This document shows positions 17,767-45,220 of a stretch of DNA of 64,000 bases, piece after piece. Made by a program: the position numbers and the translations under genes. Location: contig JALSNX010000030.1 of the NCBI GenBank assembly GCA_026986775.1, positions 79,483 to 143,482 of the forward strand. Reading direction: 5' to 3'. The notes beneath the pieces were generated by a model, which did not search any database, was not told the origin of the DNA, and was given only the letters and a program-made list of their open reading frames with translations. The stretch is from a candidate division WOR-3 bacterium (GTDB lineage Bacteria; Hydrothermota; Hydrothermia; UBA1063; CAJXJZ01). Each line of letters begins with the position of its first letter. The first letter of the stretch is position 1.

Positions 17767-17866
17767 CTGTGACATGTCACAGTTGGTGTGACTTTCCCGT
17801 CACTGTGCTAAATTAAGGCAGCATATATAATTTACTATCATAAGTGTGACATCAAAGGTGTGACAT
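17767..17866 (+). promoter_or_regulatory. cluster of GTGACAT-type sites: perfect 16-bp palindrome CTGTGACATGTCACAG, inverted repeat TGTGA-N8-TCACT and two direct GTGTGACAT repeats (candidate UAS / operator)
   Basis: The palindrome lies at 17767-17782, directly after the stop of the previous gene. gTGTGActttcccgTCACt lies at 17786-17804. GTGTGACAT occurs at 17844-17852 and 17858-17866. The whole cluster sits about 50-150 nt upstream of a sigma-54 promoter. A similar cluster is present upstream of the 28252 gene. Confidence 0.5.
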
Positions 17867-17914
17867 TCTGACCTTTCTGAACCCTTTCTTTGGTAATATC
17901 ACCATAACTCAAAA

Positions 17915-17929
17915 TGGCACTTAAATTGC
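17915..17929 (+). promoter_or_regulatory. sigma-54 (RpoN) -24/-12 promoter, TGGCAC-N5-TTGC
   Basis: tggcacttaaattgc matches the TGGCACG-N4-TTGC consensus at every conserved position. The GC of the -12 element is 31 nt upstream of the ATG at 17960. Confidence 0.7.
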
Positions 17930-17959
17930 CAATAAATACCATGGAGAAAGGGGGGATTT

Positions 17960-20824: not shown

Positions 20825-20842
20825 AAAACAAGGGAGGTTTTT

Positions 20843-23800: not shown

Positions 23801-26800
23801 GAGGTTATGGTGAAGGCATGGGATAATTATAAAGGCATGGGCAATGTTGAGTTCTACTGGAAGAGCGCAGGAGATACTGTATTCACCGAGAGTTTCATGG
23901 ACAGTCTCGGTGGTGACTGGCGGATAGATTCCATACCGGAGCAGGTATTAAACAACGACAGCACAGTTATTTACTACTATGTTATAGCAGAGGACAATGC
24001 AGGCAATACGACTTATTCAGATACCCTTTCATTCTGGGTAATAGACCCGGATACAACTATACCTCTTGTGGATAATCTCACACAACTTGAAAAAGATACA
24101 ACCATACCGCATGGCCCCTATGAAATCAAGGTGGAGGGCTATGACAATTACAAGGGCCTTAATAGTGTAAAACTTTACTGGCGAAGAAATACAGATACTG
24201 TTTTTAATGAAAGTTCCATGATTGATTATGATTCAACACATTACTGGGTAGACTCTATACCTGAACAGGTACTTAATAACGATAGTGTTGAGATTTATTA
24301 CTATGTAATGGCGGAGGATGTGGGTGGCAACCGTGCGTACACGGATACCCTCTCTTTCTGGGTAATAGACCCTGACACAACGGTGCCTCAAATAGATTCA
24401 TTAACACAACTTGAAAACGACACCACCATACCGCATGGACCCTACGAGGTTAAGATAAAGGCATGGGATGATTATAAGGGTATGGGCAATATGAAGTTTT
24501 ACTGCAAGAGCGCGGAGGATACTGTATTCACAGAGAGTTTCATGGATAGTCTTGGTGGTAACTGGTGGGTGGATACGATACCGGAAGAGGTATTAAACAA
24601 CGACAGCACAGAGATTTATTACTATGTTATAGCAGAAGACAATGCGGGCAATACGAGTTATTCGGACACCCTCTCTTTCTGGGTAATAGACCCCGACACA
24701 ACAGTGCCAGAGATAGATTCATTAACGCAAATTGAAAAAGACACCACCATACCGCATGGACCCTACGAGGTTAAGGTGAAGGCATGGGACGATTATAAAG
24801 GCATATCAAATGTTAAGTTCTACTGGAAAAATGATGCATCTGGAACATTTACGGAGAGTTTCATGGACAGTCTCGGTGGTAATTGGTGGGTGGATTCCAT
24901 ACCTGAGCAGGTATTAAACAACGACAGCACAATAATTTATTACTATGTTGTAGCCGAAGATATAGGCGGCAATATTACCTGTTCGGATACCTTGAGTTTC
25001 TGGGTAATAGACCCCGACACCTTACCACCTGAAATTGACTCACTCACGAAGGTTTTAAGCGATACTACCTTACCTTTTGGACCCTATGAGGTTAAGGTGA
25101 AGTCATGGGATGAGTATGGTAGTATTCAGGATGTAAAATTCTACTGGAAAAACGATACAATGTCTGATTTCACAGTGGGGAATATGGCATATCTGGGTGG
25201 GGATTGGTGGGTAGATTCTATACCACAGCAGGAATTTGCCGCCGACAGTATGTCTATTCTTTACTATGTGGTATCAGAGGATAGTGCAGGCAATTCAACC
25301 ATAACAGATACCATGAGTTTCTGGATGGTAAAGCCCGACACGGAGCCACCTTTAATAGATTCTCTCACGCAGGTGGATAAAGACACGACAATACCTCATG
25401 GTCCTTATGAAATAAGGGTAAAGGCATGGGATGAGTACAGGGGCGTAAGCAATGTTCGTCTTTACTGGAAGGATGACACATCAAGTACATTTACGGAGAG
25501 TTTCATGGACAGTCTCGGTGGTGACTGGTGGATAGATTCCATACCGGAGCAGATATTAAACAACGACAGCACAGTTATTTATTACTATGTTATAGCCGAG
25601 GACAATGCCGGTAATACGAGTTATTCGGATACCATTTCATTCTGGGTAGTAGACCCTGATACAACAGTACCACAGATAGATTCAGTGACACAGCTTGAAA
25701 GAGACAATAACCCACCTTACGGGCCATATGATGTATGGAGCAAGGTAAAAGATGAATACAGGGGACTTGCTGATGTTGAACTCTACTGGAAAAAGGAATC
25801 CCAGCCGGCATTCATACAGGTTTCTATGTCAGGGACTTCAGATGACTGGTGGTACGGTAGTATACCCGAGCAGACGCTTGATACTGATAGCATAAGAATT
25901 GTTTACTATGTAAAAGCAACCGATCTGGGAGGAAATACTTCATATTCTGATACTTTGAGTTTCTACATAGTAAAACCCGATACCATGGCTCCTCAGATAG
26001 ATTCCCTTACACAGGTTGATAACGACTCAACCGCTCCTTATGGTCCCTATGAAGTCAGAGTGAAGGTGACAGACCTTTACAAGAAAGCAGGAAGTCTATT
26101 TGGTAAAGGTGTGTTAAAAGACATAAAGGACAAGGAGACATCACAAGTGAAACTCTACTGGAAACTGGAGACAGAGGCCGTTTTCAACGAAAACAGTATG
26201 GCTTATCTTGGTAACAACTGGTGGATAGACAGCATTCCAGAGGAGAGTTTCAGCACAGATAGCGTAAGAGTTCTTTATTATGTGAGTGCCATGGATGATG
26301 CCGGTAATACTTCATATTCGGATACCCTGTCATTCTGGCTTATAAAACTTGATACCGTAAAACCTGTAATAGATACGGTTACACAGATTGAAAGGGATTC
26401 GGTGCCTCCTTATGGCCCCTATGAGGTATGGGTAAATGCCACAGATAACAAAGGAGTAAAATACACAAGGCTTTACTGGAAAAGGGCATCTCAGCCGGCA
26501 TTTGTTCAGATTGATATGAACCATGCAGCAGGGAACTGGTGGGTTGATAGTATTCCAGAGCAGACACTCAATCAGGATAGCGTATTGATACTATACTACG
26601 CTGAAGCAGTTGATTCTTCGGGCAATACATGTATTTCGGACACATTGGGGTTCTGGATTGTAAGCCCTGATACAATGCCGCCTGTGATAGATTCCCTTGC
26701 TCAGATTGAAAATGATACAATGCCACCCTATGGCCCTTATGAAGTTAGAGTAAAAGTTACAGATAGTAGAAAAGGACAGGTTGTTTTCGGCATTTATAAA

Positions 26801-28009
26801 AACAATAAGCATATTGCCTTATTGAATGGTAAAGATGCATTTCTTGATAAATCAGCAGGAAAAGGTGTAGGAAGTGTGAAACTTTACTGGAAAAACGACC
26901 AGGATGCTGTATTCCATGAAAGCGATATGAGCCTCCAGAGTGGTGACTGGTGGATAGATACAATACCACAGCAGAGTCCTGCTACGCATACCATGGGTGT
27001 TATATATTATGTCAAAGCTACAGACGAGGCGGGTAATACGGCTTATTCTGATACATTGAGTTTTGTTATAGTCACACCCGATACAACACCGCCGGTAATA
27101 GACTCCCTTACACAACTTGAAAACGATACTACATTCCCGCATGGTCCGTATAATATAGATGTCAAGGTAATGGATGATTACAGGGGCGTTTCAGGTGTAA
27201 CGCTTTACTGGAGAACCTCACTGATGTCTGACTTTTCACACGATGCCATGGTTAATATCTCAGGCAACTGGTGGCATGATACGATACCGCAGATTGACTT
27301 TACCAGTGTTGATAGTGTTGAGATTTTCTATTTCGTGACTGCAGCTGACTCATCTTCAAATATGTCTGTCTCGGACACTTTGAGTTTCTGGGTAATAAAC
27401 CCCGATACCACACCACCCGAGATAGATTCCCTTACACAGATAGAAAACGACTCAACCTCTCCTTATGGACCCTATGAGGTCTGGGTTAAGGTGGTGGATG
27501 GTTATACGGGTGTGGACAGTGTTAAATTGCTCTATAAGAAACAGTCTCAGCCTGCCTTTGTAGAAAGTAATATGAGTTATGTTGCTCAGAACTGGTGGGT
27601 GGATACAATCCCTGAACAGAGCCTTCAGGCGGAAGATAGTGTAATAGTTATGCTCTACTACATATATGCCATTGATAATGCCGGAAATGAAGTCGTCTCT
27701 GATACTCTGAGTTTTGAACTGATAAATCCGGAATATCTAATAGAAGAAGGGAAGTCTATCACACAATTTGGCGTGAAAATCCCGTCCGTGTGCAGAAACA
27801 GATTGAGTTTTGTCTTTATGGCGCCGTCTTCAGATATATACAGCGTAAAAGTATATTCTGTAAACGGCAGGCTCTTATTCAATGACAGAGGAAAAATAAA
27901 GAGAGGATTGACACTCATGAATCTTCCGCTGCATAAAGGTGGTCTTTACTTTGTAAGGATAAAATTCCATGGAAAAACATACTATGGAAAGGTTCTTCTG
28001 GTAAAATGA
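20843..28009 (+). CDS. giant (2388 aa) T9SS cargo protein: SBBP-like propeller repeats plus 14 tandem ~107-aa repeats plus T9SS C-terminal domain
   Basis: Signal peptide. N-terminal repeats are as in the 17960 gene. From about aa 748 there are 14 in-frame tandem copies of PDT.xP.IDSLTQ.EKDTTIPHGPYEVKVKAWD.YKG..NVKFYWK....FTESFMDSLGG.WWVDSIPEQVLNNDST.IYYYVIAEDNAGNTSYSDTLSFWVID. The C-terminus (YSVKVYSVNGRLLFND...GGLYFVRIKF...KVLLVK) is T9SS CTD-like. It is 18 nt downstream of the previous gene and probably co-transcribed. Confidence 0.85.
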   Translation: MKRLIVILFMVSLLKAQNFGDVILEDTFGLYTPGSGNGVAWDDHDNTVIIAGYKRAHGSAVKKGWLIKYDPLSDDTIWSRFYGNYKYDFFNDVAYDPSGYYVAVGASATSSSVDFWILKLTTDGNVEWQGIYGNPSLYDEAKAVTLDSAGDYVVVGYERDSDGVDKAAILKIDANTNDTVWTRVYNTPDTSRLYDVFIDPNGYYVGVGEIYEAGYGWKMALWVIAPNNGDIVGGDEYGTSGSNHRGRCGLMSSDNNFIIAGYTDVNGDKDYEILKIKYSDFSVIWDSTYAISGDQEAWEITRINEDVYVGGYSSEKGNKDGFMMVIDDGFGRVVDMDLNGLSDVDDWEKSVVVYQDTILSVGGSENEHLLTHIRHSQNIRDSHLKDLSLRIGYEDRAYAIAIDSSGNYIIVGNTHSPDDADHWQILAVKYDPVQDRVLWWKVYSQRWGDSKANKVIVDRDGYYAIAGYTVNSSGNKDVWVLKLNPNTGDTVWTGVFGGDSDEVAMDIIEDLNGDYAVAGYTTSYGAGREDGWLLVLNASTGDTLYTKTYGGSEYDVFNAIAEDNGYYILAGVSSELHGWGDDWILKVDAQNGDTVWQRYYGDQEGQIAYDVIVDRDGNYVVGGKTYTNSTQDDVWVLKIESDSGDTIWTKSYGGSDSERGFSIREDKEGFYVIAGFTRSYGAGSSDYWALKLDPENGATLGQKTFGGTGDDMAECVSVDDSNHYVITGFSNSTTTGGYDFYTVKIYQGDNLPPVFDSITQLPNDTTLPFGPYQVDVKITDNLSGVDRGRLYWKSSEDADFSYSSLTYNTNNWWGASISEINITGDSALVYYYVDAYDSAGNYGVSDTLSFWVIKPDTEPPLIDSLTQVDKDTTIPHGPYEVRVKAWDEYRGVNNVRLYWKDEASSTFTESFMDSLGGDWWVDSIPEQVLNNDSTVIYYYVIAEDNAGNTSYSDTISFRVIDPDTTVPQIDSLTQLEKDTTIPHGPYEVMVKAWDNYKGMGNVEFYWKSAGDTVFTESFMDSLGGDWRIDSIPEQVLNNDSTVIYYYVIAEDNAGNTTYSDTLSFWVIDPDTTIPLVDNLTQLEKDTTIPHGPYEIKVEGYDNYKGLNSVKLYWRRNTDTVFNESSMIDYDSTHYWVDSIPEQVLNNDSVEIYYYVMAEDVGGNRAYTDTLSFWVIDPDTTVPQIDSLTQLENDTTIPHGPYEVKIKAWDDYKGMGNMKFYCKSAEDTVFTESFMDSLGGNWWVDTIPEEVLNNDSTEIYYYVIAEDNAGNTSYSDTLSFWVIDPDTTVPEIDSLTQIEKDTTIPHGPYEVKVKAWDDYKGISNVKFYWKNDASGTFTESFMDSLGGNWWVDSIPEQVLNNDSTIIYYYVVAEDIGGNITCSDTLSFWVIDPDTLPPEIDSLTKVLSDTTLPFGPYEVKVKSWDEYGSIQDVKFYWKNDTMSDFTVGNMAYLGGDWWVDSIPQQEFAADSMSILYYVVSEDSAGNSTITDTMSFWMVKPDTEPPLIDSLTQVDKDTTIPHGPYEIRVKAWDEYRGVSNVRLYWKDDTSSTFTESFMDSLGGDWWIDSIPEQILNNDSTVIYYYVIAEDNAGNTSYSDTISFWVVDPDTTVPQIDSVTQLERDNNPPYGPYDVWSKVKDEYRGLADVELYWKKESQPAFIQVSMSGTSDDWWYGSIPEQTLDTDSIRIVYYVKATDLGGNTSYSDTLSFYIVKPDTMAPQIDSLTQVDNDSTAPYGPYEVRVKVTDLYKKAGSLFGKGVLKDIKDKETSQVKLYWKLETEAVFNENSMAYLGNNWWIDSIPEESFSTDSVRVLYYVSAMDDAGNTSYSDTLSFWLIKLDTVKPVIDTVTQIERDSVPPYGPYEVWVNATDNKGVKYTRLYWKRASQPAFVQIDMNHAAGNWWVDSIPEQTLNQDSVLILYYAEAVDSSGNTCISDTLGFWIVSPDTMPPVIDSLAQIENDTMPPYGPYEVRVKVTDSRKGQVVFGIYKNNKHIALLNGKDAFLDKSAGKGVGSVKLYWKNDQDAVFHESDMSLQSGDWWIDTIPQQSPATHTMGVIYYVKATDEAGNTAYSDTLSFVIVTPDTTPPVIDSLTQLENDTTFPHGPYNIDVKVMDDYRGVSGVTLYWRTSLMSDFSHDAMVNISGNWWHDTIPQIDFTSVDSVEIFYFVTAADSSSNMSVSDTLSFWVINPDTTPPEIDSLTQIENDSTSPYGPYEVWVKVVDGYTGVDSVKLLYKKQSQPAFVESNMSYVAQNWWVDTIPEQSLQAEDSVIVMLYYIYAIDNAGNEVVSDTLSFELINPEYLIEEGKSITQFGVKIPSVCRNRLSFVFMAPSSDIYSVKVYSVNGRLLFNDRGKIKRGLTLMNLPLHKGGLYFVRIKFHGKTYYGKVLLVK
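23085..27730 (+). repeat. array of 14 tandem ~321-nt coding repeats; several copies are nearly identical at nucleotide level
   Basis: For example, 23380-23640 and 25300-25560 differ at only a handful of positions (ttctgg.t..taaagcccgacacggagccacctttaatagattctct.ac.caggtggataaagacac...). Copies near the array ends are more divergent, including two with insertions (around 26060 and 26760). Confidence 0.9.
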
Positions 28010-28024: not shown

Positions 28025-28052
28025 CAGAGCCCCCATATAAGGGGGCTCTTTA
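28025..28052 (+). terminator. intrinsic terminator candidate after the 2388-aa gene
   Basis: agagccccc-atataa-gggggctct hairpin followed by TTTACTGTTTTA. Confidence 0.55.
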
Positions 28053-28060: not shown

Positions 28061-28149
28061 TGACACATTGCTGTGACATGAATGGTCACAGTTTAACATG
28101 TTGTTATGTAAGGAGTTTAATTCTGGGGTGTGACATGGAGTTATGACAT
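28061..28149 (+). promoter_or_regulatory. second cluster of GTGACAT-type sites (inverted repeat CTGTGAC-N7-GTCACAG; direct GTGTGACATG / ATGACAT)
   Basis: The sequence tgacacattgCTGTGACatgaatgGTCACAG lies at 28061-28091. The sequence GTGTGACATGgagttATGACAT lies at 28128-28149. These share their half-site with the 17767-17866 cluster. The cluster sits about 60-150 nt upstream of a sigma-54-like promoter. Confidence 0.5.
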
Positions 28150-28210
28150 TTTGAGTATTGATTTTATTGGTTTTAAAGGTGTTGGTTGTAAATCAATAAC
28201 TTATGTACTA

Positions 28211-28225
28211 TGGCTTGAAAATTGC
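28211..28225 (+). promoter_or_regulatory. sigma-54-type -24/-12 promoter candidate, TGGCTT-N5-TTGC
   Basis: tggcttgaaaattgc has GG and GC at exactly the consensus spacing, with two mismatches in the -24 hexamer. The GC is 27 nt upstream of the ATG at 28252, which has an AAAGGAGG RBS. Confidence 0.5.
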
Positions 28226-28251: not shown

Positions 28252-31200
28252 ATGAGGCGTTTTGTATTAGCCATACTTTTATCTATGGGATTTCTTCTGG
28301 CAGCAGGAGAGTCCGATATTATGTGGCAACAGACCTTCGGGTCTGATACCGATGATGTTTTTTACAGTGTATCTGTCTGGGACAGCACTCCTTATTATTA
28401 CATTGGTGGAGCTACCATGGCTGGCGGAACGAACTACGACTACTGGATTTTGGCCCTTGACCCTGGTAACAGTTCACCTGTGTGGGAATATACTTTCGGT
28501 GCCGGTGGTCATGAGCAGGCCTACGGCATATCAAATGGTTATGCTCCGGGTTATGGAGGGTTTATAGCCACCACCGGATACACATATTCCTATGGGAATG
28601 GGCAAAACGACTTAATGTCGCTTGCCATGACAGCAGGTGGTAGTTTTCTGGATACCATGCTTATAGGTGGTGCAAGTTATGATGTAGGCTACAGCGTTTT
28701 TGCCGGAGAGGATGGTACCTATGTTGATGCGGGAAGAACACACAGTTATTCTGGTGATGGAGATATGATAGTTACCAAATATATCCTGGCTGACGGCCAC
28801 ATTATTGACACCATCTGGTCACAGGTGTTTCATGCGTCAGATTCCTTTGATGTAGCAACTTCAGTTATAAGGTATCAGGATGTTGATATTGTTGGTGGAT
28901 ATACTAATGGAACTGGCAATTACGACGGGATTATACTTGTTCTGAGTGACTCTTCAGGTGAGAGAGTCGCCGATTACGAATTCAGGGGTTCTGGTAATGA
29001 TTATATCAAGGCCCTTACAGTGGATAGAGATGGCAACATAATTGGTGCTGGATATTCAACAACAGACAGTCATGGTGGTGACGATGTCTGGATTTTTAAA
29101 ATGGCGCCAGATGGCACGGTTTTATGGGATAAAAAGTATGGTGGTCCTCTTGATGACAGGGCAAACAGTGTATTCATTGATTCAAACGGAAATGTTGTTA
29201 TTGGTGGGTACACGGAAAGTTATGGACAGGGAAATGAGGATTGCTTTATCCTCTCTGTGAACCTTGTAGATGGAAAGCCAAACTGGTACAGGGTTTATGG
29301 AGGCTCGGGAACGGATATCCTGTATGGTTCCACACTCGGAAACAAGGGAGAGGGTGTGTTTGTTGGAAAAACTTCGTCTTTTGGTGCAGGTTCCTATGAT
29401 GGCTGGATTATAACGATGAACCTTGATGTTACTCCGTTAAGGATAAGTGGATTTGTTCCCCGTGTGATACCTCTTTCCACCACGAGAAAAATTTATGTGT
29501 ATGGAACCGGATTTTCAGGCTACGATGCAGGTGAGATAAACATAAACTTTGTTGATGCGTCAGGTGTCGTGCAGGCTGCGGTGCATCCTGATGAGGTGAT
29601 TTCTGATGATGAACTTGTGGCAACTGTAAACCTTTCGGGTATCCCCACTGGTTCCTACAGTGTATATATTGATGCAGGAGGAATAGTTACTACCGATACA
29701 CTAAAAGGTGTGGTTTATGTTATAAATCAGGGCGCAGATGAAAAGTATTTGAGTTATGTTAATGTGGGCAGCACGGGACCCATAGGAACCATGGCATCAG
29801 GTGATGCTGACAACGATGGCAGGATAGAACTTTACGCAGGTGGAGGCTATTATCTGGGAAGCACGCTTTACTATCCCCTTATGAAGATAAGTGGCAGTGG
29901 CGGTGGACTTTCAGTTGATACAATATGGAGTATCCGCACAGGTGCCCGTGCGATTGTTATAAGTGATGTTGATATGGATGGGAAAAATGAGATGTACATA
30001 GGTTATGGTGATTTCTCAAGTGGAACTGTTTCCAGACTCAGATGGAATGGCACCTCATGGACGGAAGATACCGTATTGAATACTGATTATGTAATTATGG
30101 GGCTTGATGCGGGCAGCATTTATGGACAGAGTAAAAGGTCACTTTATGCAGTATCCTATGACAGTACATTCTATGAGATTACAAAAACAGCTTCAGGATA
30201 CAGTAAAGACACATTTATGGTTTCAGGTTATGGTGCTTTCATAGATGTGAAATTGGGAGACCTTGAGAGGGATGGTAAGGTAAAGGCCTATGTATCAACT
30301 GCAAGTGGAAAGATTCTGGAAATAAAAAGGGATAGTTATGGCAATTTTGTCTATACCACTATTTCCGAATCTCTAATTAAAAACATAGGAACGATGGGCA
30401 GGCTCTATATAACCGATGCTGATAATAATGGGTATGAGGAACTCTATGCTTCCAGTGTTGTAGGAGTTTATGATGATATTTTTGATCTTAAGATAACATA
30501 CAATAGCGGTGCTTTTGTATTTGATACCATTGGCAGGGAGTTTATTGACTTAAGAACACAGATTATAGTTGAGGACTTAAACGGTGATGGAAAGGTAAAC
30601 CTGTACGGTACGGGATGGTATCACGGTTTTTACAAAGAACCTCTGGAAGATGGCAGTTGGGCATGCGGTGTGGGTTCGGTTTATAATGCCACAATGGAGC
30701 CGGGACAGGCGGCAGGTTATGTTGACCTTGATGGTTCGGGAAATCTCACCATATTTGCAGGCGGCGCAGGTATGCTTTACAGACTTGTGCCCCAGAATAC
30801 AGCACCACAGTTTAAAACCCTTGAGGTGTTTAAATACTTCCCACAGACTGCACCCGAAAATAAAGACTTTAAACTTGTCGTATACGGCAGGGGATTGAAC
30901 AATGCACAGGAAGTAAGACTTGAAGGTGATGCGGGAAGTTTTTCCGGAACGATAGACAGCCGATATTATCCGCGCATTGTGGTTTCTTTTAACGGGATGC
31001 CCGAAGGACACTATAACCTTCTGGTTGTCTCTGCATCCTCAACGGATACAATAAGGGATGCTGTATGTATAAATAAATCCACTTATTATCCTGATGGGAC
31101 CGCCCATATAAGGATTGATACCATGTTTTCCACACCTTCTGGTGTGCCACTTTACAGTCTTGTAAAGGGTGACCTTGATAAGGATGGCCATGTAGAACTT

Positions 31201-34200
31201 TATGCAGGAAGCGCAGGAAAGATATATAAAATCTATAAAGACCCAGTTGCAGACTCTGTTAATATTGAAGATATAGGACTGACATTTTCTTACGATGTCA
31301 GAACCCTTCTTTATGGCGATGTTGACAATAGCGGAGAGAAGAAACTCTTTTACAGGGACAGTATGGATATGGGAGTTATATATTACGATGGCTCATATCA
31401 TAAGGTTTCTTTCCACAAATATCCCAATAATGCATCAGGGTATCTGACAGATAATATAAACCTTGTGGATTTGAACGGTAACGGGTTCAATGAACTTGTT
31501 AATATGTCCTATAACGGACTTCTCAATCTGTTTGAGATATATCAGGACAGTTTTGTGCTTTCAAACACAAAGAGGATATTTACGTCAAATAGTTTTTATA
31601 CAGATGTTGATTATGGAGCTTTTGTGGGTGCACCAGATAATATGGAACTTTATGTCACGGGGACAGATGCATGCTCTGGTAGTTACTGTGATGGTAAGAT
31701 AAAGAGGATAAAATACAACTATGACCTGTGGCAGGTAATTGATGTTTATTCAAATACAGAACCCTATACCATTACCCTATCTCCCATGAAAGTTCTTGCA
31801 GATGATACAGGCAATGACGAATTATTCTTCTTTGATATGGCTGATACTGCTGTATATAGAATGACATACGGTGGCAGTGGGTATTTGAGTACAGGGGTGC
31901 ATACAACGCTGGAAAGTGAACTTATTTTTGACAGGGCTGACCTTGATAATGATGGAACTGTAGAATACTGGGGCATTGGTGATTATTATCTTCGTGAATT
32001 TCTGCTGACGGGTTCTTCCTTTACCACTGTGGACAGCGTGTATTTACCGGATGTAAATGATATTGCAGGATTTGACCTTGATGGGGATAACAAACTTGAG
32101 ATGTATGCCATAACCAGCTATGGAAAAGTTTTAAAGATACATAAAGTTTTTAAGAAGAAATTGAGGGTAAGAAAAACTGACCCTGTAATATTCTCCCGTG
32201 CCTCTGAGGATTCTCTCATTACTATTTTTGGTGGCGGATTTACACTGTTTGATAAAGATTCTTTGAATGTTAACCTGATTGATAAAAACGGTAATTCAGT
32301 CATGGTACTCAATCCGGACACAGTAATGAGCTATACGCGGCTTTCACTTCATTTACCTGTTTCTGCCATCAACCCCGGATGGTATGATATGGTAATTTCT
32401 TATGATACGATAAAATCGGATACTTTAAAAGATGCTGTGTTTATTTCAGGAGAGCCTTTAAAACATTATATATACAGAGTTGATACTATTGGACGTATTG
32501 CCTCGTCGTTAAGATGGTATATTACGAAGGCGGATATGGATGGGGACGGAAGGATGGAATACTATGTACATGATGATGGACATATATACAAAATCACCTA
32601 TAATTATGGCTCACATGCATGGAGTATAAGCACAATTTACACAGGCAATTTGTATGTTTCAAGTCTTGTGGCAGGAGATATGGACCATGATGGTAAGATG
32701 GAACTGTATTTCAGTCCCTTTGCTACAACTCCAACTCCTGTTTACTGTATAAAAATGGAGGCGGATACATACAGAGTAGATAGTATAAGTTATTTCTCCT
32801 CTGGAGCGAAAATAGGCATAGGCGATGCCGACAACGACGGTGAGGATGAACTTCTGGGTTACTCTGTGCATGGTGTTCTGAATGTATTAAACTTCAGAGA
32901 TTCCACATGGGAGAGAAAGACTTATACCATTGAAAGCGTTGCCGCTACTTCTGATATAGTGGTGGCAGATGTGGATAATGATGGATTCAATGAAATCTAT
33001 ACTTACGGTGCGCCTTCAGGACAGACAGATGCAGGTCTTATAAAGATAACACTCGCACCTTATTTAAGTTCAGAATATGTTTACGTAGATTACAATATTG
33101 CAGTGGGTGGCATAAAAATCTATGATATTGACGGCGATGGACAGGAAGAACTCTACACAGGTAGTTATGGCAGTGATGGTAAAACTACGATTTACCTATT
33201 TAGATATTTAAATTCAGGGTATTATTCCTCGGAAGTCATGAAGAATGAAGGTCTTGCAGGAGATATAGGTGTCGGTGACCTTGATAATGACGGTAAAAAC
33301 GAGATTGCCGCTGGTTTTTATTCGCTGCTTGAAATGGTAAAAGAAAATAATGATTACAAACGGATTATAACCGGCATTGATACCATAGTGGGTATTCTCC
33401 CAGCAAGTATAAATGACACCACAAGACTTGACATGCTCGTAACCACCAGAAGCGGTTATCTTGTTCACATCAGTCAGGAGCCCTTACCGATTGATTCTGC
33501 TGTATCAGTAAATGGACTCCTTACATCCATTATTCCTGTTGGTGATTCACTGATAACCGTTTTATATGGCAAAAACCTGAACAATGTGCAGAATATATAT
33601 GTTGAGAAGTCACAGGGCAGTTACCAGAAGGAGGCCACCATTTTAGAGGTATCTTCAGGTGGAAACTATGCAAAGATTGTAATACCGCCTCTTGACACAG
33701 CAGGTTACTACAATGTTATTGTCCACGGTAATGGTGATGATACACTTTACAGCGGGCTTCTGGCTAATAATATCTATTCAGAAACGGATAATGGAATTGT
33801 AGAGATAGATACTTTGAAAGATATAGGTGGAAGAAAGCATAAAGACACCTACTACTATATGAGTATAACCTCAGTTGACCTTGATAAAGACGGCAAGAAA
33901 GAGGTGTATGTCGCAGGAGACAGTTTGTGGACTGTGGACTATGTTGGTGATACCTTTGTGGTAAATTCAATTATGGACATTCCGGGAGTGGCAAACTGCA
34001 TAACATACGGCAGATTCATGAAGGATACGGTATCCCTCTTTGTGGGGACCACTTCAGGTGAAATCTATGAATTGTCACCGAATGATACGGGCTTTACCAT
34101 TTTGAAGGTATTTGACCTTTCCATGGCAGGGCTTTCTTCTTCAATAACAAATGGTATAAAGATAATGGATGTGGACAACGATAAAAACAATGAACTTATA

Positions 34201-35802
34201 GCAGGGTGGGGTAATGGGATGGTTGCGATTTTAAAAGAAAATAACAGTGATATTGACCTTTACATCACTGAATTGCATTCATCTTCAGTTGTGAAATCCA
34301 TTGACATAGGAGATATGGACAGGGATGGCACAAACGATGTTTATGTTAATACTTACGGAACATCGGCCTACCTGAATGATATCCATTATTCTGATACAGG
34401 CTATGTGAAATCAAATATATTCTCTCTTGGAAGTGCAGCGGATATTGGAAAAATAGGGGATATAAACAAAGATGGAAATAGCGAAATTGCAGTTGCCAAT
34501 CACGCTTATCTTTATCTCGGAAGTTACAACAGCGGTTCCTGGAACCTTGACACGGTGATGTCTTCTGGAGGCTCTTACATATTCAGGACTGCGATATTCA
34601 CGGACTTTAAAAATACAGGGAGCAATGACCTTATTGTATCTCACTCAAGCCATCGTCTTTTAAGAGTTGTATCTCATGGTGCAGATTCTTTTGAAATAGA
34701 TACGCTTGTTAGTTTCAGCGATGCAGAACCCATGGATATGACTGCCTGTGACCTTGATAAAGATGGTGAGGTGGAAGTATATGCAGTAAATGGTTCTGGC
34801 AGGATTTTTAGAATAGCATATGTGCATGACACCCTGCCTCCTTCCATGGTAAACATTGTATATCCACAAAACAATACCTGGTTTACAGCAGTGCCTGACA
34901 GTTTCCTATTTATCTGGAACAGCGTAAGTAAGATTGTGAATACCAGAAGGAATAGTATAAAATTTGCTAAATTCACCTTTATGGATTATCCGGATGAAAA
35001 AGGGGTGACACCCGTTAACTATATTGTGGAAATTGCAAGAGACTCTTTATTTGACACCATAACCATGATTGATACCACCTCTGATACAGTATATGTTATT
35101 GCCAAAAAATCTCCTCTTGGAGAGGAAAATTACTTTAGAGTCAGGGCATTTGACCTTGCCGGAAATGAAGGTCCGTACAGTGAGGTTGTAAGATTTGGAA
35201 TTGACAGTATTGTGCCTGTTATTGATTCTGTTACCATACTATCAGATACCACTTACGAGGGACCATTCAATATAGCCATAGGTGCCCATGATGTGCCATC
35301 GGGAATTGATTCTGTTATTCTTTTCTACAGGAGAATGGAGGATACAGCGTGGATAATGGCTCTGGCGGTGCGTGATACACAGGATGTTTACATTGCCACA
35401 ATTCCCGAGGTGAATCTGCAGAACGACTCCGTTAAATACTATATTAGTGTTTCTGATTATGCACATCTTTCTGACACTGCGCCAGCGGGTGCACCTTATG
35501 TTTACTATGAATTTATTGCATCGGGTATAGGTGAAACAAACAGGATAACCCGCTTTGAGATGAATGTTCCTGTGGTATCTGAAAACACGGTGAGATTCAG
35601 TCTAACTGTGCCGGAAAAACAGAGAATAGGTCTGAATATATACGATATACAGGGGAGGAAGGTTATTACCGTGTTGAACAGGAGGCTCTTGAGAGGAAAA
35701 TATACATTCAGTGTCGCCAATCTGAAAAGAGGGGTGTACATTTATCATCTCAGATACGGGAACCGCAGGTTTAATGGCAAATTTATCGTAGTGGGTAAAT
35801 AA
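28252..35802 (+). CDS. giant (2516 aa) T9SS cargo protein: N-terminal propeller-like repeats, four [IPT/TIG-like plus FG-GAP repeat block] modules, one ~107-aa pre-CTD domain, T9SS C-terminal domain
   Basis: Signal peptide MRRFVLAILLSMGFLLAAG. About 25 integrin-alpha-like FG-GAP motifs (GDADNDGRIELYAGG, GDLDKDGHVELYAG, ADVDNDGFNEIYTYG, CDLDKDGEVEVYAVNG and others). Four IPT-like segments (e.g. PLRISGFVPRVIPLSTTRKIYVYGTGFSG). The C-terminus VRFSLTVPEKQRIGLNIYDIQGRKVITV...KRGVYIYHLRYGNRRFNGKFIVVGK matches a Por secretion tail. Confidence 0.85.
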   Translation: MRRFVLAILLSMGFLLAAGESDIMWQQTFGSDTDDVFYSVSVWDSTPYYYIGGATMAGGTNYDYWILALDPGNSSPVWEYTFGAGGHEQAYGISNGYAPGYGGFIATTGYTYSYGNGQNDLMSLAMTAGGSFLDTMLIGGASYDVGYSVFAGEDGTYVDAGRTHSYSGDGDMIVTKYILADGHIIDTIWSQVFHASDSFDVATSVIRYQDVDIVGGYTNGTGNYDGIILVLSDSSGERVADYEFRGSGNDYIKALTVDRDGNIIGAGYSTTDSHGGDDVWIFKMAPDGTVLWDKKYGGPLDDRANSVFIDSNGNVVIGGYTESYGQGNEDCFILSVNLVDGKPNWYRVYGGSGTDILYGSTLGNKGEGVFVGKTSSFGAGSYDGWIITMNLDVTPLRISGFVPRVIPLSTTRKIYVYGTGFSGYDAGEININFVDASGVVQAAVHPDEVISDDELVATVNLSGIPTGSYSVYIDAGGIVTTDTLKGVVYVINQGADEKYLSYVNVGSTGPIGTMASGDADNDGRIELYAGGGYYLGSTLYYPLMKISGSGGGLSVDTIWSIRTGARAIVISDVDMDGKNEMYIGYGDFSSGTVSRLRWNGTSWTEDTVLNTDYVIMGLDAGSIYGQSKRSLYAVSYDSTFYEITKTASGYSKDTFMVSGYGAFIDVKLGDLERDGKVKAYVSTASGKILEIKRDSYGNFVYTTISESLIKNIGTMGRLYITDADNNGYEELYASSVVGVYDDIFDLKITYNSGAFVFDTIGREFIDLRTQIIVEDLNGDGKVNLYGTGWYHGFYKEPLEDGSWACGVGSVYNATMEPGQAAGYVDLDGSGNLTIFAGGAGMLYRLVPQNTAPQFKTLEVFKYFPQTAPENKDFKLVVYGRGLNNAQEVRLEGDAGSFSGTIDSRYYPRIVVSFNGMPEGHYNLLVVSASSTDTIRDAVCINKSTYYPDGTAHIRIDTMFSTPSGVPLYSLVKGDLDKDGHVELYAGSAGKIYKIYKDPVADSVNIEDIGLTFSYDVRTLLYGDVDNSGEKKLFYRDSMDMGVIYYDGSYHKVSFHKYPNNASGYLTDNINLVDLNGNGFNELVNMSYNGLLNLFEIYQDSFVLSNTKRIFTSNSFYTDVDYGAFVGAPDNMELYVTGTDACSGSYCDGKIKRIKYNYDLWQVIDVYSNTEPYTITLSPMKVLADDTGNDELFFFDMADTAVYRMTYGGSGYLSTGVHTTLESELIFDRADLDNDGTVEYWGIGDYYLREFLLTGSSFTTVDSVYLPDVNDIAGFDLDGDNKLEMYAITSYGKVLKIHKVFKKKLRVRKTDPVIFSRASEDSLITIFGGGFTLFDKDSLNVNLIDKNGNSVMVLNPDTVMSYTRLSLHLPVSAINPGWYDMVISYDTIKSDTLKDAVFISGEPLKHYIYRVDTIGRIASSLRWYITKADMDGDGRMEYYVHDDGHIYKITYNYGSHAWSISTIYTGNLYVSSLVAGDMDHDGKMELYFSPFATTPTPVYCIKMEADTYRVDSISYFSSGAKIGIGDADNDGEDELLGYSVHGVLNVLNFRDSTWERKTYTIESVAATSDIVVADVDNDGFNEIYTYGAPSGQTDAGLIKITLAPYLSSEYVYVDYNIAVGGIKIYDIDGDGQEELYTGSYGSDGKTTIYLFRYLNSGYYSSEVMKNEGLAGDIGVGDLDNDGKNEIAAGFYSLLEMVKENNDYKRIITGIDTIVGILPASINDTTRLDMLVTTRSGYLVHISQEPLPIDSAVSVNGLLTSIIPVGDSLITVLYGKNLNNVQNIYVEKSQGSYQKEATILEVSSGGNYAKIVIPPLDTAGYYNVIVHGNGDDTLYSGLLANNIYSETDNGIVEIDTLKDIGGRKHKDTYYYMSITSVDLDKDGKKEVYVAGDSLWTVDYVGDTFVVNSIMDIPGVANCITYGRFMKDTVSLFVGTTSGEIYELSPNDTGFTILKVFDLSMAGLSSSITNGIKIMDVDNDKNNELIAGWGNGMVAILKENNSDIDLYITELHSSSVVKSIDIGDMDRDGTNDVYVNTYGTSAYLNDIHYSDTGYVKSNIFSLGSAADIGKIGDINKDGNSEIAVANHAYLYLGSYNSGSWNLDTVMSSGGSYIFRTAIFTDFKNTGSNDLIVSHSSHRLLRVVSHGADSFEIDTLVSFSDAEPMDMTACDLDKDGEVEVYAVNGSGRIFRIAYVHDTLPPSMVNIVYPQNNTWFTAVPDSFLFIWNSVSKIVNTRRNSIKFAKFTFMDYPDEKGVTPVNYIVEIARDSLFDTITMIDTTSDTVYVIAKKSPLGEENYFRVRAFDLAGNEGPYSEVVRFGIDSIVPVIDSVTILSDTTYEGPFNIAIGAHDVPSGIDSVILFYRRMEDTAWIMALAVRDTQDVYIATIPEVNLQNDSVKYYISVSDYAHLSDTAPAGAPYVYYEFIASGIGETNRITRFEMNVPVVSENTVRFSLTVPEKQRIGLNIYDIQGRKVITVLNRRLLRGKYTFSVANLKRGVYIYHLRYGNRRFNGKFIVVGK

Positions 35803-35803: not shown

Positions 35804-36028
35804 ATGCAGAACCTCGTTGTAAAGGTCAGAGAGGGAGAGATTGTATTTAAAAGCGCCGTCCTGAAAGGTGCCGACATTAAGATTTACAGGGAGGATGGGG
35901 AAATGGTATTTGCAAGGGAGAACCATCCCATAGACCACCTCACTGTGAAGAATCTGAAGAAGGGTGTGTATAAATACACAATAAACTCAGGCGGGCAATC
36001 TCTTTCAGGGAGGGTGGTGGTGATATAA
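35804..36028 (+). CDS. orphan T9SS C-terminal-domain-like small ORF (74 aa) with no signal peptide
   Basis: The ATG lies 2 nt after the giant gene's TAA, in a different frame. The sequence VVKVREGEIVFKSAVLKGADIKIYREDGEMVF...KNLKKGVYKYTINSGGQSLSGRVVVI has the strand pattern and terminal hydrophobic residues of a Por secretion tail. There is no obvious RBS. Confidence 0.4.
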   Translation: MQNLVVKVREGEIVFKSAVLKGADIKIYREDGEMVFARENHPIDHLTVKNLKKGVYKYTINSGGQSLSGRVVVI

Positions 36029-36034: not shown

Positions 36035-36094
36035 GGGGCCCTCCGGCTTCCCCCCACACGATACCCATCTTTCGGAGGGCCCTTCTTTTTTATT
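36035..36094. terminator. bidirectional intrinsic terminator between convergent genes
   Basis: ggggccctccg...cggagggccc forms a 10-bp GC stem with a long loop. It is followed by TTCTTTTTTATT on the plus strand and by an A/T-rich run on the minus strand. It sits between the stops of the 35804 ORF and the sigma-54 activator gene. Confidence 0.6.
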
Positions 36095-37931
36095 ATAATT
36101 TATCTTTTTTTATGTCGTATTTTTCCATTATTCTGTAAAGATGTCTTCTTGATATACCCAACTTCTCTGCTGCCTTTGTTATATTAAAGTTTGTTTCTCT
36201 TAAAACCCTTTTCACCACCTCTGGATTGTTGTAGTCTCTATCTTTCTGTACATTTCTCAGCTCTTCAGGAAGATGGTGGCTCTTTATAATTTTTTCTCTG
36301 GCAGAGATTACCGCCGCTCTCGTGATGATATTTTCTAATTCCCGAATATTTCCCGGAAAGTCATACGATAGGAGTAAAGATATTGCATCCTGTGAGAGCC
36401 TTTTGTCAGGTGCTATGTTTTTCAGGAAGTGTCTTGCAAGCACAGGTATATCCTCTTTTCTTTGCCTGAGAGGCGGAAGGTAAATCTGGAAAACATTGAG
36501 CCTGTAATACAAATCTTCCCTGAAATAGCCTTTATTTAATAACTCTTTTAGGGGTCGGCTTGTTGCACCGATAATGCGTATATCTACCCTTTTTGGAGCG
36601 GGACTGCCGAGAACCTCAATCTCTTTAAATTGTATGAGTCGCAACAGTTTAGCCTGAATTTCAAGAGGCAGTTCTGCAAGTTCGTCCAGAAATAGTGTCC
36701 CACCATCAGCCATTTCAATTTTACCCTTTTTATCCTTATAGGCCCCGCTGAATGCACCCTTTTTGTAACCAAATAACTCGGCCTCAAATAATTCCTTAGG
36801 TATTGTGGCACAGTTAATGACGACAAAAGGTCCATCTTTTCTTTTGCTATTCTTATGAATTGCCTTTGCTATAAGTTCCTTACCTGTTCCACTTTCGCCA
36901 ACTAAAAGACACGGTACATCTGTTGGAGCCACTTTTGTTATTGACTCAAGGATTTCAACAAATTTCTCACTTTCTCCTATAAGTCCGGAAAAGTCATAGT
37001 GTTCCTTTAAATAGGCCAATCTCTCACGGACTTTTTTGGGATAAACAATACTTCTTGTAAGAACGGCGCTTATTTCACTGGATAGATACTCTGCCATTTT
37101 CAGGTGTGTTTTTTGAAATATGCCTTCCATTGTCCTGTTTTCAAGGTATATGACTGCCAGGAGGTTGTTTTCTTCCATGAGTGGAAAAGCCAGAACTGAC
37201 CGGATATTAAGTGACATTATACTCGTAAACGCTCCCCATGTGGGGTCCTCCACCGCATTTGAGATGATTAGAGGCTCTCTGGATTCTATAACTTTGGTGA
37301 TGATTGATCTGGGCAGTGGGTCATGAGTGGCTATATCCTCTGTGAGACCATGATAGTAAACAGGCTGGTATTCTCCGTTTAGACTTACCTTTACAATTAC
37401 CGCTCTTTCTGCTCCCGTAAGGTCTACAATGTTTTCAAATATAAATGATAAGAGGTGTTCATTATCCAGTTTGTCTATAACCTCAGTCAGGTTATAGAGA
37501 AATTTATACATAGCAAGTTCCTGCTTTAATTCCTCATGTTCATCCAAAAGAGCAATAATCTCATCTATAACTCCTGAGTACTCTTTTTTCTCGCTCCTGA
37601 GCTGGCACAGAAAATCCTTAACATTCTGTATGCTCCTGGGGTTTACATCTTCAGGAATATCTAGGCTGAATTCAAAGCTAACAGGCCCAAATCCGATTAT
37701 ATCATGGTCATTTAGCAAAACCTCGGTTGACACCGGGTTACCATTTACTGTGGTGCCGTAAGTGGAATTTAAGTCCCGCAAAAACCATTTATTGCCCTTT
37801 TTCAGGATTTCAGCATGATTTCTGGATATATATGAATTTTGAATTACAATATCTGCATCCTCTGACCTTCCTACTACAACCTTATCCTTATCAATGTTGT
37901 AAAGAGTGTCTTTTCCCTTAAGATATGGCAT
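36093..37931 (-). CDS. sigma-54-dependent transcriptional activator (enhancer-binding protein) with N-terminal FHA domain and central GAF domain
   Basis: FHA signature VVVGRSEDADIVIQNSYISRNHAEI...YGTTVNG. A GAF-like region follows. The AAA+ sigma-54 interaction domain has Walker A GESGTGKE and GAFSGA (the GAFTGA loop variant). C-terminal Fis-type HTH KAAEKLGISRRHLYRIMEKY. The ATG overlaps the kinase gene's stop (TAATG). Confidence 0.85.
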   Translation of the reverse strand: MPYLKGKDTLYNIDKDKVVVGRSEDADIVIQNSYISRNHAEILKKGNKWFLRDLNSTYGTTVNGNPVSTEVLLNDHDIIGFGPVSFEFSLDIPEDVNPRSIQNVKDFLCQLRSEKKEYSGVIDEIIALLDEHEELKQELAMYKFLYNLTEVIDKLDNEHLLSFIFENIVDLTGAERAVIVKVSLNGEYQPVYYHGLTEDIATHDPLPRSIITKVIESREPLIISNAVEDPTWGAFTSIMSLNIRSVLAFPLMEENNLLAVIYLENRTMEGIFQKTHLKMAEYLSSEISAVLTRSIVYPKKVRERLAYLKEHYDFSGLIGESEKFVEILESITKVAPTDVPCLLVGESGTGKELIAKAIHKNSKRKDGPFVVINCATIPKELFEAELFGYKKGAFSGAYKDKKGKIEMADGGTLFLDELAELPLEIQAKLLRLIQFKEIEVLGSPAPKRVDIRIIGATSRPLKELLNKGYFREDLYYRLNVFQIYLPPLRQRKEDIPVLARHFLKNIAPDKRLSQDAISLLLSYDFPGNIRELENIITRAAVISAREKIIKSHHLPEELRNVQKDRDYNNPEVVKRVLRETNFNITKAAEKLGISRRHLYRIMEKYDIKKDKL

Positions 37932-44261: not shown

Positions 44262-45220
44262 GGCAGAAGTGAGAGAATTATGAGGTTTTTTGTTATCTTT
44301 TCGTCACGCAGATTTGTTTTTGTCGCATATTCTATTTCAATAAGCCTTTTCATAACAATTGATGCATCTTTGAGCGTGTGGAGCATTTTGTGCTTTTTAT
44401 ATGGTCTTATACGCCATTCAGAACGGTATCTATCAGAAAAGAATGTACCCAGAGCTGCGTCAATAATTCTTGCAAAGTGAGTTTCCATTTCATATACTAT
44501 TTCATTGGTTTTTCTGTTTAGCATGGCCTTTTTTATCTTTTTTGTGTTAAATTTCTCATATCCCATTACGTCAAATAAAGTGTTCTGCAAAGGATATTCA
44601 GATACATAACTTAAGATGCTGAGGTGATGTTTATCAAGAAAGCGGTCATCATCCATATATAGAAAGAGTTTCTTCAGCTCCATATCAGCGTGAGTAAGAT
44701 TCTGTGGCAGTTTTTTAACGAGAAGTTCAAGTATTCTATCGTCCGCTTCCTTGTTGTTCCTTTTTAATCTGCTTTTTACCCATATGGTAAATCCTTTATA
44801 ATCAAGCGATGAAAACTCATATATATCAATGTGTTTCAGGTTGCGATATTTGCCAAGAAGATTCTTCAATTTCCTTTTATCGTATGAAGAAGAAATGACA
44901 AGAGCAATATATGTGCCATCAGGAATTCTCATGCGTAATAAATCATCTTTTTGCTTTAGTTTCTCAAACTCATAAATCACAATTAAGCGTTTTGCAGCAA
45001 ACAATCCCGTATTTGTGACAGTGCCCAAAATTTCATCTACGGTGGTGTCCTTGCCAAAGAAAACAATTCTTTTTACGCCCAGAAATTCTTCTATACGGGA
45101 TATAGCCACTTTTTTAAGATAATCCTCCTCACCGACAAGAAGGACAATGGGTGATGCAGGTCCATTGGCCTTAAGATTGTTAAAAAGCTGGTTGTAATAC
45201 GCAATACCTGTACCTGCCAT
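44258..45220 (-). CDS. holA: DNA polymerase III delta subunit
   Basis: N-terminus ...IVLLVGEEDYLKKVAISRI and its ~320-aa size resemble HolA clamp-loader delta. Confidence 0.55.
   Translation of the reverse strand: MAGTGIAYYNQLFNNLKANGPASPIVLLVGEEDYLKKVAISRIEEFLGVKRIVFFGKDTTVDEILGTVTNTGLFAAKRLIVIYEFEKLKQKDDLLRMRIPDGTYIALVISSSYDKRKLKNLLGKYRNLKHIDIYEFSSLDYKGFTIWVKSRLKRNNKEADDRILELLVKKLPQNLTHADMELKKLFLYMDDDRFLDKHHLSILSYVSEYPLQNTLFDVMGYEKFNTKKIKKAMLNRKTNEIVYEMETHFARIIDAALGTFFSDRYRSEWRIRPYKKHKMLHTLKDASIVMKRLIEIEYATKTNLRDEKITKNLIILSLLP

Follow-up and report, generated by a model that had tools for sequence, protein, structure and literature searches.

In bacterial FG-GAP/VCBS proteins (PF13517, PF01839), repeats of about 50 residues form seven-bladed beta-propellers in which nearly every blade carries a DxDxDG loop (PMC3192720). 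Bacterial propellers of the integrin type with one Ca2+ site per blade, including proteins with 14 repeats that make up two propellers, were described in 2011 (Chouhan et al., PMC3192720), and a supercluster of VCBS, integrin and tachylectin propellers was reported in 2021 (Pereira & Lupas, PMC8023676). The alpha subunit of the metazoan integrins has the same seven-bladed FG-GAP propeller with DxDxDG loops, followed by a thigh domain. The type-A cargo proteins of the type IX secretion system (T9SS), such as RemA and the gingipains, are characterized by an N-terminal Sec signal and a C-terminal beta-sandwich sorting domain of about 80 residues. Here, we describe a gene that combines these elements. 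It is located in a stretch of 64,000 nucleotides from a candidate division WOR-3 bacterium (contig JALSNX010000030.1; the whole stretch is called the window), where the open reading frame (ORF) 28252..35802 (+), stop codon included, encodes a protein of 2516 residues and has an AGGAGG motif 6 nt upstream of its ATG. The protein consists of five propellers (35 blades), an immunoglobulin (Ig)-like domain after each of them and a sorting domain at the very end, and it is an exported protein of about 270 kDa; we hold this anatomy and the export by the T9SS with high confidence. It differs from the described bacterial FG-GAP/VCBS proteins in that four of its propellers regularly alternate with an Ig-like domain, and in that this four-module layout is kept, at near-identical length, in an ortholog of 29% identity. 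Moreover, its passenger region is unrelated to any characterized T9SS cargo. In the literature library searched, no paper was found on FG-GAP together with T9SS, and a paper on a WOR-3 isolate does not mention secretion. The parts of the protein are as follows:

28252..28308 (+), Sec-type signal peptide (residues 1-19, MRRFVLAILLSMGFLLAAG), without a lipobox cysteine, as read from the sequence
28315..29427 (+), N-terminal beta-propeller (residues 22-392) with seven repeats of about 52 residues, SBBP/delta-60 type
29434..29721 (+), T1, Ig-like (IPT/TIG-like) beta-sandwich (residues 395-490), marginally matching Pfam TIG and aligning with T2-T4
29749..30801 (+), P1, FG-GAP/VCBS propeller 1 (residues 500-850), FG-GAP_3 37.5 bits, delimited by the motif map
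30823..31086 (+), T2, Ig-like (residues 858-945), with homology to the other three T segments shown by alignment
31114..32151 (+), P2, FG-GAP/VCBS propeller 2 (residues 955-1300), FG-GAP_3 28.7 bits, the apparently hypervariable cassette
32185..32451 (+), T3, Ig-like (residues 1312-1400), from the alignment and AlphaFold2 strands
32464..33477 (+), P3, FG-GAP/VCBS propeller 3 (residues 1405-1742), FG-GAP_3 77.6 bits, FG-GAP 52.8 bits
33499..33765 (+), T4, Ig-like (residues 1750-1838), by alignment with T1-T3
33799..34827 (+), P4, FG-GAP/VCBS propeller 4 (residues 1850-2192), FG-GAP_3 60.6 bits, FG-GAP 27.9 bits, delimited by the motif map
34846..35550 (+), stalk, probably two Ig/Fn3-like beta-sandwich domains (residues 2199-2433, about 235 residues)
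35551..35799 (+), T9SS type-A C-terminal sorting domain (residues 2434-2516)

The central part of the protein is made of four modules, each a segment of about 95 residues that is all-beta followed by a propeller of about 350 residues. The modules (residues 390-865, 853-1312, 1314-1748 and 1745-2206) align end to end and collinearly with 19-24% identity. Every propeller block on its own passes the FG-GAP_3 gathering score, and in a Pfam scan of the whole protein the VCBS-type FG-GAP_3 model (110.5 bits, E = 6e-32, cutoff 26.9) clearly outscores the integrin FG-GAP model (44.7 bits, E = 1e-11, cutoff 22.1). Loops of the strict form Dx[DN]x[DN]G occur 17 times; when the protein was shuffled 2000 times, they averaged 0.54 per shuffle and never exceeded 4. 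With a position matrix, 20 Ca-loop sites were located within the four blocks, three weaker ones (residues 825, 1023 and 2120) were recognized by eye, and the relaxed loop motifs amount to about 23 in total. The first-pass annotation, made from the sequence alone, had already seen the four blocks; its count of about 25 motifs was slightly generous but in essence correct. With spacings of 45-54 residues or multiples of about 49, the loops define seven blade positions in each block and 28 in all (in P1 at about residues 518, 572, 620, 670, 722, 775 and 825). They are present in five to seven of the seven blades of each block: P3, for example, has one degenerate blade and six perfect DxDxDG loops. 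The loops are of the Ca2+ type that FG-GAP/VCBS propellers carry between strands 1 and 2 of their blades, and binding of Ca2+ is predicted from their sequence. A dockerin or EF-hand origin of these loops was considered and rejected: The EF-hand matches are below threshold and concern a single loop only, and FG-GAP is preferred. Both the domain search and the structural model of module 3 thus speak for a propeller and against dockerin-like loops without such a fold. We also considered a relation to Tc toxins or RHS proteins, as some homologs carry TcdB or SpvB; in the Pfam scan, however, the protein has no RHS/YD, SpvB or TcdB domain.

The blocks had been judged long enough for seven-bladed propellers, and this agrees with the AlphaFold2 and Foldseek results for module 3 and with the spacing of about 50 residues in the other blocks. 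The AlphaFold2 model of module 3, computed with an alignment of 16 rows, has a mean predicted local distance difference test (pLDDT) score of 75 and a predicted template modelling score of 0.72; in its propeller part, the pLDDT is 80-93, and about 29 strands form seven four-stranded blades. When this model was compared to the PDB with Foldseek, the top match was ITFG2 in the KICSTOR complex (9van_B, E = 2e-10, template modelling (TM) score 0.63), followed by BBSome propellers, the PLL lectin, the propeller BPB of DDB1 and seven-bladed WD40 proteins. ITFG2 and the propellers of BBS2, BBS7 and BBS9 have the same seven-bladed FG-GAP-like fold (TM-scores 0.61-0.65, normalized to the target). The Pfam matches to Itfg2 and Beta-prop_BBS7 are weak, and the likeness is structural only: These propellers belong to eukaryotic cytosolic scaffold proteins and share 12-14% sequence identity with our protein.

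The likeness to integrin alpha, which the first-pass annotation had put into the description of the modules, is valid at the level of the FG-GAP/VCBS superfamily and does not extend to the strict features of integrins. The position of the thigh domain after the integrin propeller corresponds to that of the Ig-like domain after each propeller of our protein. Yet Ca loops are found in three or four blades of integrin alpha but in most blades here, and the C-terminus is a T9SS sorting domain. The transmembrane helix and the GFFKR-type tail of integrin alpha were not found: The only hydrophobic segment in the 2516 residues is the signal-like N-terminus MRRFVLAILLSMGFLLAAG. Moreover, there is no gene for a beta-like subunit in the neighbourhood, and no integrin is among the 50 Foldseek matches listed for module 3. 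Current ideas on the origin of integrins or on propeller evolution are left unchanged.

Two regions at the ends of the protein were also anticipated from the sequence, and the architecture that the first-pass annotation proposed is right in nearly all respects. The N-terminal region had been called SBBP-like, and it contains seven repeats (at residues 52, 108, 160, 215, 266, 318 and about 370) that match the beta-propeller of CylK (PDB 7fh7) with E = 3e-11. The scores of the repeat families themselves are sub-threshold, 13.5 as compared to 20.5 for SBBP (PF06739) and 20.7 as compared to 76.5 for delta_60_rpt (TIGR02608); about 50 database homologs cover this region alone, and these are labelled as delta-60 repeat proteins or carry SBBP PF06739 or DUF5122 PF17164. 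The C-terminal domain (CTD) passes the T9SS sorting domain model TIGR04183 (25.9, cutoff 23). With Por_Secre_tail (PF18962, cutoff 27) it scores 26.2 in the whole protein and 29.7 in the C-terminal fragment. It is modelled by AlphaFold2 with a pLDDT of 91-97, and a local Foldseek match was obtained to the CTD of RemA in a T9SS complex (8gl6_D, TM-score normalized to the database structure, TMt, 0.62).

The nature of the segments that separate the propellers is less clear-cut. The first-pass annotation had placed an IPT/TIG-like segment before each block. Homologous all-beta segments are indeed present at all four positions, but their identity as TIG domains is marginal, as only T1 reaches Pfam TIG (PF01833; 21.1 bits, E = 3e-4, residues 397-477, in the whole-protein scan with a cutoff of 20.9), and even T1 falls marginally short of the cutoff if it is scanned alone (20.6-20.7 bits). 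The Pfam scan of T2 alone gave no match. In favour of the assignment, the T segments of three orthologs share the signature (I/L)xxYGxGF ... GxY(D/N)(V/L)x(V/I) ... (T/S)DTL, no family other than TIG turns up repeatedly among them (at E <= 1, TIG is matched by 5 of 12 orthologous segments), and the alignment to TIG obtained with hhalign is in register with the G-x-G-F part of the signature. The AlphaFold2 model of T3 has seven beta-strands with a pLDDT of 50-80. Several observations count against the anatomy as we draw it. A profile search of the T segments against the PDB gave weak Ig-like and E-set matches only (E >= 0.1), and with hhalign the comparison to four bona fide bacterial TIG domains reached E = 0.037 over 34 columns; because both matches are weak, we call the segments Ig-like, probably E-set/TIG-like. 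For blocks 1, 2 and 4, the alignment and the loop spacing suggest seven blades. For the stalk, the AlphaFold2 model of the C-terminal 322 residues is all-beta with a pLDDT below 50, and its Foldseek matches are generic Ig chains. A local jackhmmer search linked residues of about 2245-2360 of the stalk to the tandem Ig-like repeats of the Big_13 type in two other proteins (P0004 and P0005) and showed the whole stalk to be common to P0196, P0181 and P0086.

Poly-propeller giants of the FG-GAP/VCBS type are common in metagenomes, and the view that a protein of this architecture is unusual is not supported. In an exhaustive HMMER search with the module profile against 1.84 billion cluster representatives, 38,384 representatives matched at E <= 1e-3, of which 270 reached E <= 1e-30. 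Most of the top 149 relatives are giants of 2-7 thousand residues, and about 81 of the 149 have, by motif count, at least four propeller equivalents, with about ten propellers in P0099 (5273 residues) and seven to nine in each of P0127 and P0085. Complete modules of an Ig-like domain plus a propeller are rarer (P0086, P0099, P0127, P0085, P0138, P0176 and P0181), and bona fide TIG domains adjoin FG-GAP propellers in the unrelated giants P0030, P0052, P0046 and P0067. Other searches reached less far: In a word-indexed homolog search with the whole protein, the N-terminal propeller dominates and the matches cover at most about 15% of the query, the same kind of search with the module alignment returned single-propeller VCBS proteins only, and a protein search of the GTDB species representatives gave three weak, unrelated FG-GAP loci, one in Gammaproteobacteria and two in metagenome-assembled genomes (MAGs) of Omnitrophota. 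The public collections contain an identical protein (P0001) and an ortholog of 90% identity (P0002). A distant multi-propeller relative is encoded at positions 61-5557 of L006, from an Omnitrophota MAG (JAQURV010000012), and aligns with query residues 571-2168 at 24% identity; poly-propeller FG-GAP proteins therefore occur also outside the Fibrobacteres-Chlorobi-Bacteroidetes (FCB) group. The parts of our protein and its overall kind are thus ordinary for environmental bacteria, and it is a tidy new example rather than a system of a new kind. Its value is that of a well-resolved case in which uncultured bacteria of the FCB group (WOR-3/Hydrothermota-like) build giant surface proteins from stock parts, i.e. 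propellers, Ig-like spacers and a T9SS tail.

The comparison with related loci points to one propeller as the variable part. In a close relative (L001), the protein is 90% identical, as compared to 96-99% for the products of the neighbouring genes. Propeller 2 (31102-32181, residues 951-1310) has only 65% amino acid identity and a synonymous divergence (dS) of 0.98, whereas the flanking domains are 94-99% identical with a dS of 0.07-0.16; a second, smaller peak of divergence is at residues of about 1544-1700. The ratio of non-synonymous to synonymous divergence (dN/dS) of the whole gene is about 0.23, which speaks for a real gene under constraint. This pattern indicates the import of a divergent allele segment under purifying selection, and propeller 2 looks like a hypervariable cassette subject to recombinational replacement. 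At a more distant locus (L008), the ortholog P0086 has 2517 residues and the same layout at 29% identity. Here, the amino acid identity to the window is 90% for valyl-tRNA synthetase and 74% for a GatA-like amidase, and 55% and 51% for the sigma-54 activator and the Ser/Thr kinase encoded beside our gene. The module scores against P0086 are not strictly collinear, with module 3 of the window best matching module 1 of P0086; the modules may thus have been exchanged to some extent or have decayed unevenly.

Our best explanation for the system as a whole is an exported penta-propeller surface protein under the control of sigma-54 that serves as a multivalent binder, and we regard this explanation as probable. 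Following what is established for type-A CTD cargo, the protein would be carried across the inner membrane by Sec, its CTD would be recognized by the type IX secretion system, and after passage of the outer membrane by the T9SS the CTD would be cleaved and the C-terminal end tethered at the cell surface. The result may be a stalk of about five propellers strung like beads, the N-terminal one being outermost. Ca2+ in the blade loops would stiffen the propellers, and the propeller faces could provide several binding sites. For rigid Ca2+-loaded propellers with several binding faces, multivalent adhesion or ligand capture is therefore the most likely role, and the ligand may be a polysaccharide, a particle or another cell. 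As no other part varies as much, propeller 2 probably determines the specificity or is exposed. By analogy, we lean, with somewhat less assurance than for the explanation as a whole, towards an adhesin or ligand binder at the cell surface that is multivalent, stabilized by Ca2+ and variable in propeller 2, which is probably exposed. Some points argue against going further. The word adhesin, which the first-pass annotation had used, describes a role suggested by the likeness to other FG-GAP/VCBS and T9SS surface proteins. Moreover, neither rpoN nor genes for the T9SS machinery (PorK/L/M/N, Sov/SprA, PorU/V) were found in the 64-kb window, and we assume that both are present in the genome. The window contains five ORFs with matches to the T9SS CTD (954, 2388, 2516, 74 and 1538 residues), and the four besides our gene make a T9SS in this organism likely.

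A structural role would be a different way to account for such a protein: It might be an abundant Ca2+-stabilized building block of a surface layer or sheath that binds no specific ligand. A very large, all-beta, Ca-loop-rich and T9SS-tethered protein would suit this role, the best although weak PDB match of the T-domain profile is the S-layer glycoprotein of Haloferax (7ptp, E = 0.1), and the rapid divergence of the protein (29% identity to P0086, with 90% for valyl-tRNA synthetase) is typical of exposed coat proteins. However, the activator-dependent sigma-54 promoter implies conditional rather than constitutive high expression, no lattice-forming or SLH-type domains were found with Pfam, and the two further co-regulated giants suggest a set of inducible surface factors. 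We therefore regard a coat as unlikely. The protein might also be an enzyme or an enzyme scaffold, with at least one catalytic propeller of the polysaccharide lyase/hydrolase or dehydratase type that acts on extracellular polymers. Indeed, P3 passes the Pfam model Beta-prop_CGLA for the propeller of lambda-carrageenase (28.7 bits, cutoff 26.8), aldos-2-ulose dehydratase (4a7k) is among the Foldseek matches, and CylK, whose propeller is similar to the N-terminal domain, is an enzyme. The CGLA match, however, covers a single blade of 47 residues and reflects the shared FG-GAP repeat, neither a catalytic domain nor a CAZyme family was detected in the Pfam and NCBIfam scans, and genes for carbohydrate utilization were not found nearby, which makes an enzyme quite improbable.

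The multivalent binder that we favour seems to be made on demand. The elements that bear on the transcription of its gene are located in the upstream intergenic region and in a second, similarly organized unit:

28026..28049 (+), intrinsic-terminator-like hairpin (9 bp, 7 of them GC, T-rich tail) at the end of the two-gene operon upstream; identical in L001
28071..28150 (+), putative enhancer (upstream activating sequence) with CTGTGAC-N7-GTCACAG (28071-28091) and GTGTGACAT-N6-ATGACATT (28128-28150)
28211..28225 (+), sigma-54-type -24/-12 element TGGCTTGAAAATTGC, 26 nt upstream of the ATG, with GG/GC at canonical spacing
17767..28009 (+), sister transcription unit with TGTGACAT repeats (17767-17866), the element TGGCACTTAAATTGC (17915-17929) and the ORFs of 954 and 2388 residues

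The upstream terminator implies that the gene needs its own promoter, and a sigma-54-type promoter, TGGCTTGAAAATTGC at 28211-28225, had been proposed from the sequence. This proposal stands, as the element is conserved in both L001 and L008, and we consider it very likely that a sigma-54 promoter drives the gene. The exact core TGGC-N7-TTGC is present at only four sites in the 64-kb window, and three of these are 26-43 nt upstream of ORF starts: at 28211 (our gene), at 17915 (the operon of the 954- and 2388-residue ORFs) and, on the minus strand, at 9203 (a gene for an ankyrin-repeat protein). The window has six exact copies of the octamer TGTGACAT, all of them at 17768-17866 or 28072-28136, i.e. 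upstream of two sigma-54-like promoters, and they include the palindromes CTGTGACATGTCACAG and CTGTGAC-N7-GTCACAG. In L001, the intergenic region is 98% identical, including the sigma-54 core. At the L008 locus the intergenic sequence has diverged around conserved islands: The -24/-12 core is kept as TGGCATCAAAATTGC, 28 nt upstream of the ATG, and the enhancer block as GTGTGACAT-N5-GTGACATT, so that the two loci share GTGTGACAT-N5/6-RTGACATT. It could be argued that the match to TGGC-N7-TTGC is fortuitous and that transcription of the gene relies on a housekeeping promoter or on read-through. The -24 element deviates at two positions from the consensus TGGCAC-N5-TTGC (TGGCTT versus TGGCAC), which is a weakness of our assignment, and many matches appear in the window once two mismatches are allowed. 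Yet a strong terminator is present 160 nt upstream, no good sigma-70-like site was found in the intergenic region, the exact core is rare and mostly found just upstream of ORF starts, its distance to the ATG is nearly the same at the diverged ortholog locus, and both a conserved enhancer-like repeat and a neighbouring gene for an activator accompany it. A chance match is thus very improbable. The idea that the protein is a gliding-motility adhesin of the SprB/RemA kind, a giant T9SS filament moved along the cell surface, draws on its size, its T9SS export and the local match of the CTD model to the RemA-CTD, but the sequence outside the CTD resembles neither SprB nor RemA and gld/spr genes were not found in the window, and we give this idea hardly any credence.

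Each of the two ORFs of the sister unit encodes a protein with a signal peptide and a delta-60 repeat region at the N-terminus and with a T9SS CTD. The two units have a common design, with TGTGACAT repeats and palindromes about 50-150 nt upstream of TGGC-N7-TTGC, and L008 keeps this design at 9800-9972; the sister unit itself is absent from the syntenic locus of L008. The shared TGTGACAT and sigma-54 design defines a putative small regulon of three giant T9SS proteins. The 2388-residue ORF, an Ig-repeat protein (unit 17960-28009 (+)), has 1959 residues in L001 (137-8384), and the alignment is consistent with an altered number of repeats. The 954-residue ORF has 782 residues in L001, where it starts near the end of the contig, and this difference may be mere truncation.

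Downstream of the gene for the propeller protein, three further genes and a hairpin follow:

35804..36028 (+), ORF of 74 residues, a leaderless free-standing T9SS-CTD-like mini-protein, starting 1 nt past the stop codon of the propeller gene
36035..36091 (no strand assigned), GC-rich hairpin with a T-run, located where the small ORF and the activator gene converge; 100% identical in L001
36093..37931 (-), sigma-54 enhancer-binding protein (Pfam Sigma54_activat 1.9e-67, FHA 1.3e-20, GAF, HTH_8)
37931..40426 (-), transmembrane Ser/Thr kinase, with the kinase at residues 8-251, one transmembrane segment at about residues 262-285 and a periplasmic region with tetratricopeptide repeats

The order of the propeller gene, the small ORF, the activator and the kinase is kept in L001 and L008. 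Enhancer-binding proteins in general are reviewed elsewhere (PMC4641369). The adjacent FHA-GAF-AAA+-HTH protein is the candidate activator at the TGTGACAT repeats: It would bind there, 60-140 nt upstream of the promoter, and stimulate transcription from 28211-28225, and the same enhancer/promoter design would drive the neighbouring operon, which encodes two more giant T9SS cargo proteins. The presence of an FHA domain in the activator points to the transmembrane Ser/Thr kinase encoded next to it as a possible controller. In Myxococcus xanthus, FHA-domain sigma-54 enhancer-binding proteins paired with Ser/Thr kinases were reportedly described by Jelsbak et al. in 2005. As in these proteins, the FHA input replaces the receiver domain, and a eukaryote-like kinase adjoins the activator; the cases differ in that the predicted targets are giant T9SS surface proteins here and that the wiring is deduced from synteny. 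This last point weakens the regulatory part of our explanation, since gene adjacency and synteny are what connects the kinase to the FHA domain. The sigma-54 promoter, the TGTGACAT enhancer common to the two units, and the adjacent genes for an FHA-type activator and a Ser/Thr kinase together provide a concrete regulatory link. The periplasmic part of the kinase contains two FG-GAP-like loops, DINNDGKNEV and DVNNDGTKDIV (Pfam E of about 4e-4, below the cutoff). A paralogous relationship of this region to the propellers of our protein was considered and dropped, as there was no match at E <= 10 with the module hidden Markov model.

The 74-residue ORF is probably co-transcribed with the large gene. 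It passes TIGR04183 (25.3, cutoff 23; Pfam E = 1e-4), resembles the CTD of the propeller protein itself and is present in L001-L004; L008 has a homolog of 75 residues (17606-17833) with its own ribosome-binding site and 28% identity. The hairpin at 36035..36091 is, judged by its sequence, probably a bidirectional terminator. It is tempting to speculate that the four genes (for the propeller protein, the 74-residue protein, the activator and the kinase) form a surface-sensing circuit that is complete in itself and has no described precedent. In such a circuit, the kinase would sense contact with a surface or ligand and switch on the adhesin regulon via the FHA domain, the orphan cytoplasmic CTD-like protein might modulate secretion or feedback, and propeller 2 would be an exchangeable specificity cassette that is swapped between strains by recombination. 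We consider such a circuit distinctly unlikely. In any case, propeller 2, as a recombinant hypervariable cassette, and the mini-gene for the conserved, CTD-like orphan protein are small leads for the study of T9SS cargo handling and surface variation.

The two remaining exact sigma-54-type cores of the window are found in other surroundings. The core TGGCATTTAAATTGC at 9203-9217 (-) is 43 nt upstream of the ankyrin-repeat ORF 7915-9159 (-); it has no TGTGACAT repeats, and therefore it is presumably served by another activator. The fourth core, TGGCACATATATTGC at 44904-44918 (-), is a perfect consensus inside an annotated ORF of 320 residues (44258-45220 (-)), and either the true start of this ORF may be further downstream or the core may be an internal promoter. 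Among the other genes of the window, those at 89-4885 (-), 7915-9159 (-) and 10902-11744 (-) form a cluster for eukaryote-like signalling, with a PP2C phosphatase, two further Ser/Thr kinases and two proteins with ankyrin repeats; a secreted protein of the CAP/SCP family is encoded at 11922-12476. At 51073-55689 (+), there is the gene for the T9SS cargo protein of 1538 residues, with Cleaved_Adhesin, MAM-like, lamin-tail, FlgD-Ig and Por_Secre_tail domains. An Rfam scan of the window detected one tRNA only (45384-45458). The best named relatives of the valyl-tRNA synthetase of the window are from Ca. Hydrothermae/Hydrothermota and candidate division WOR-3, with 58-63% identity.

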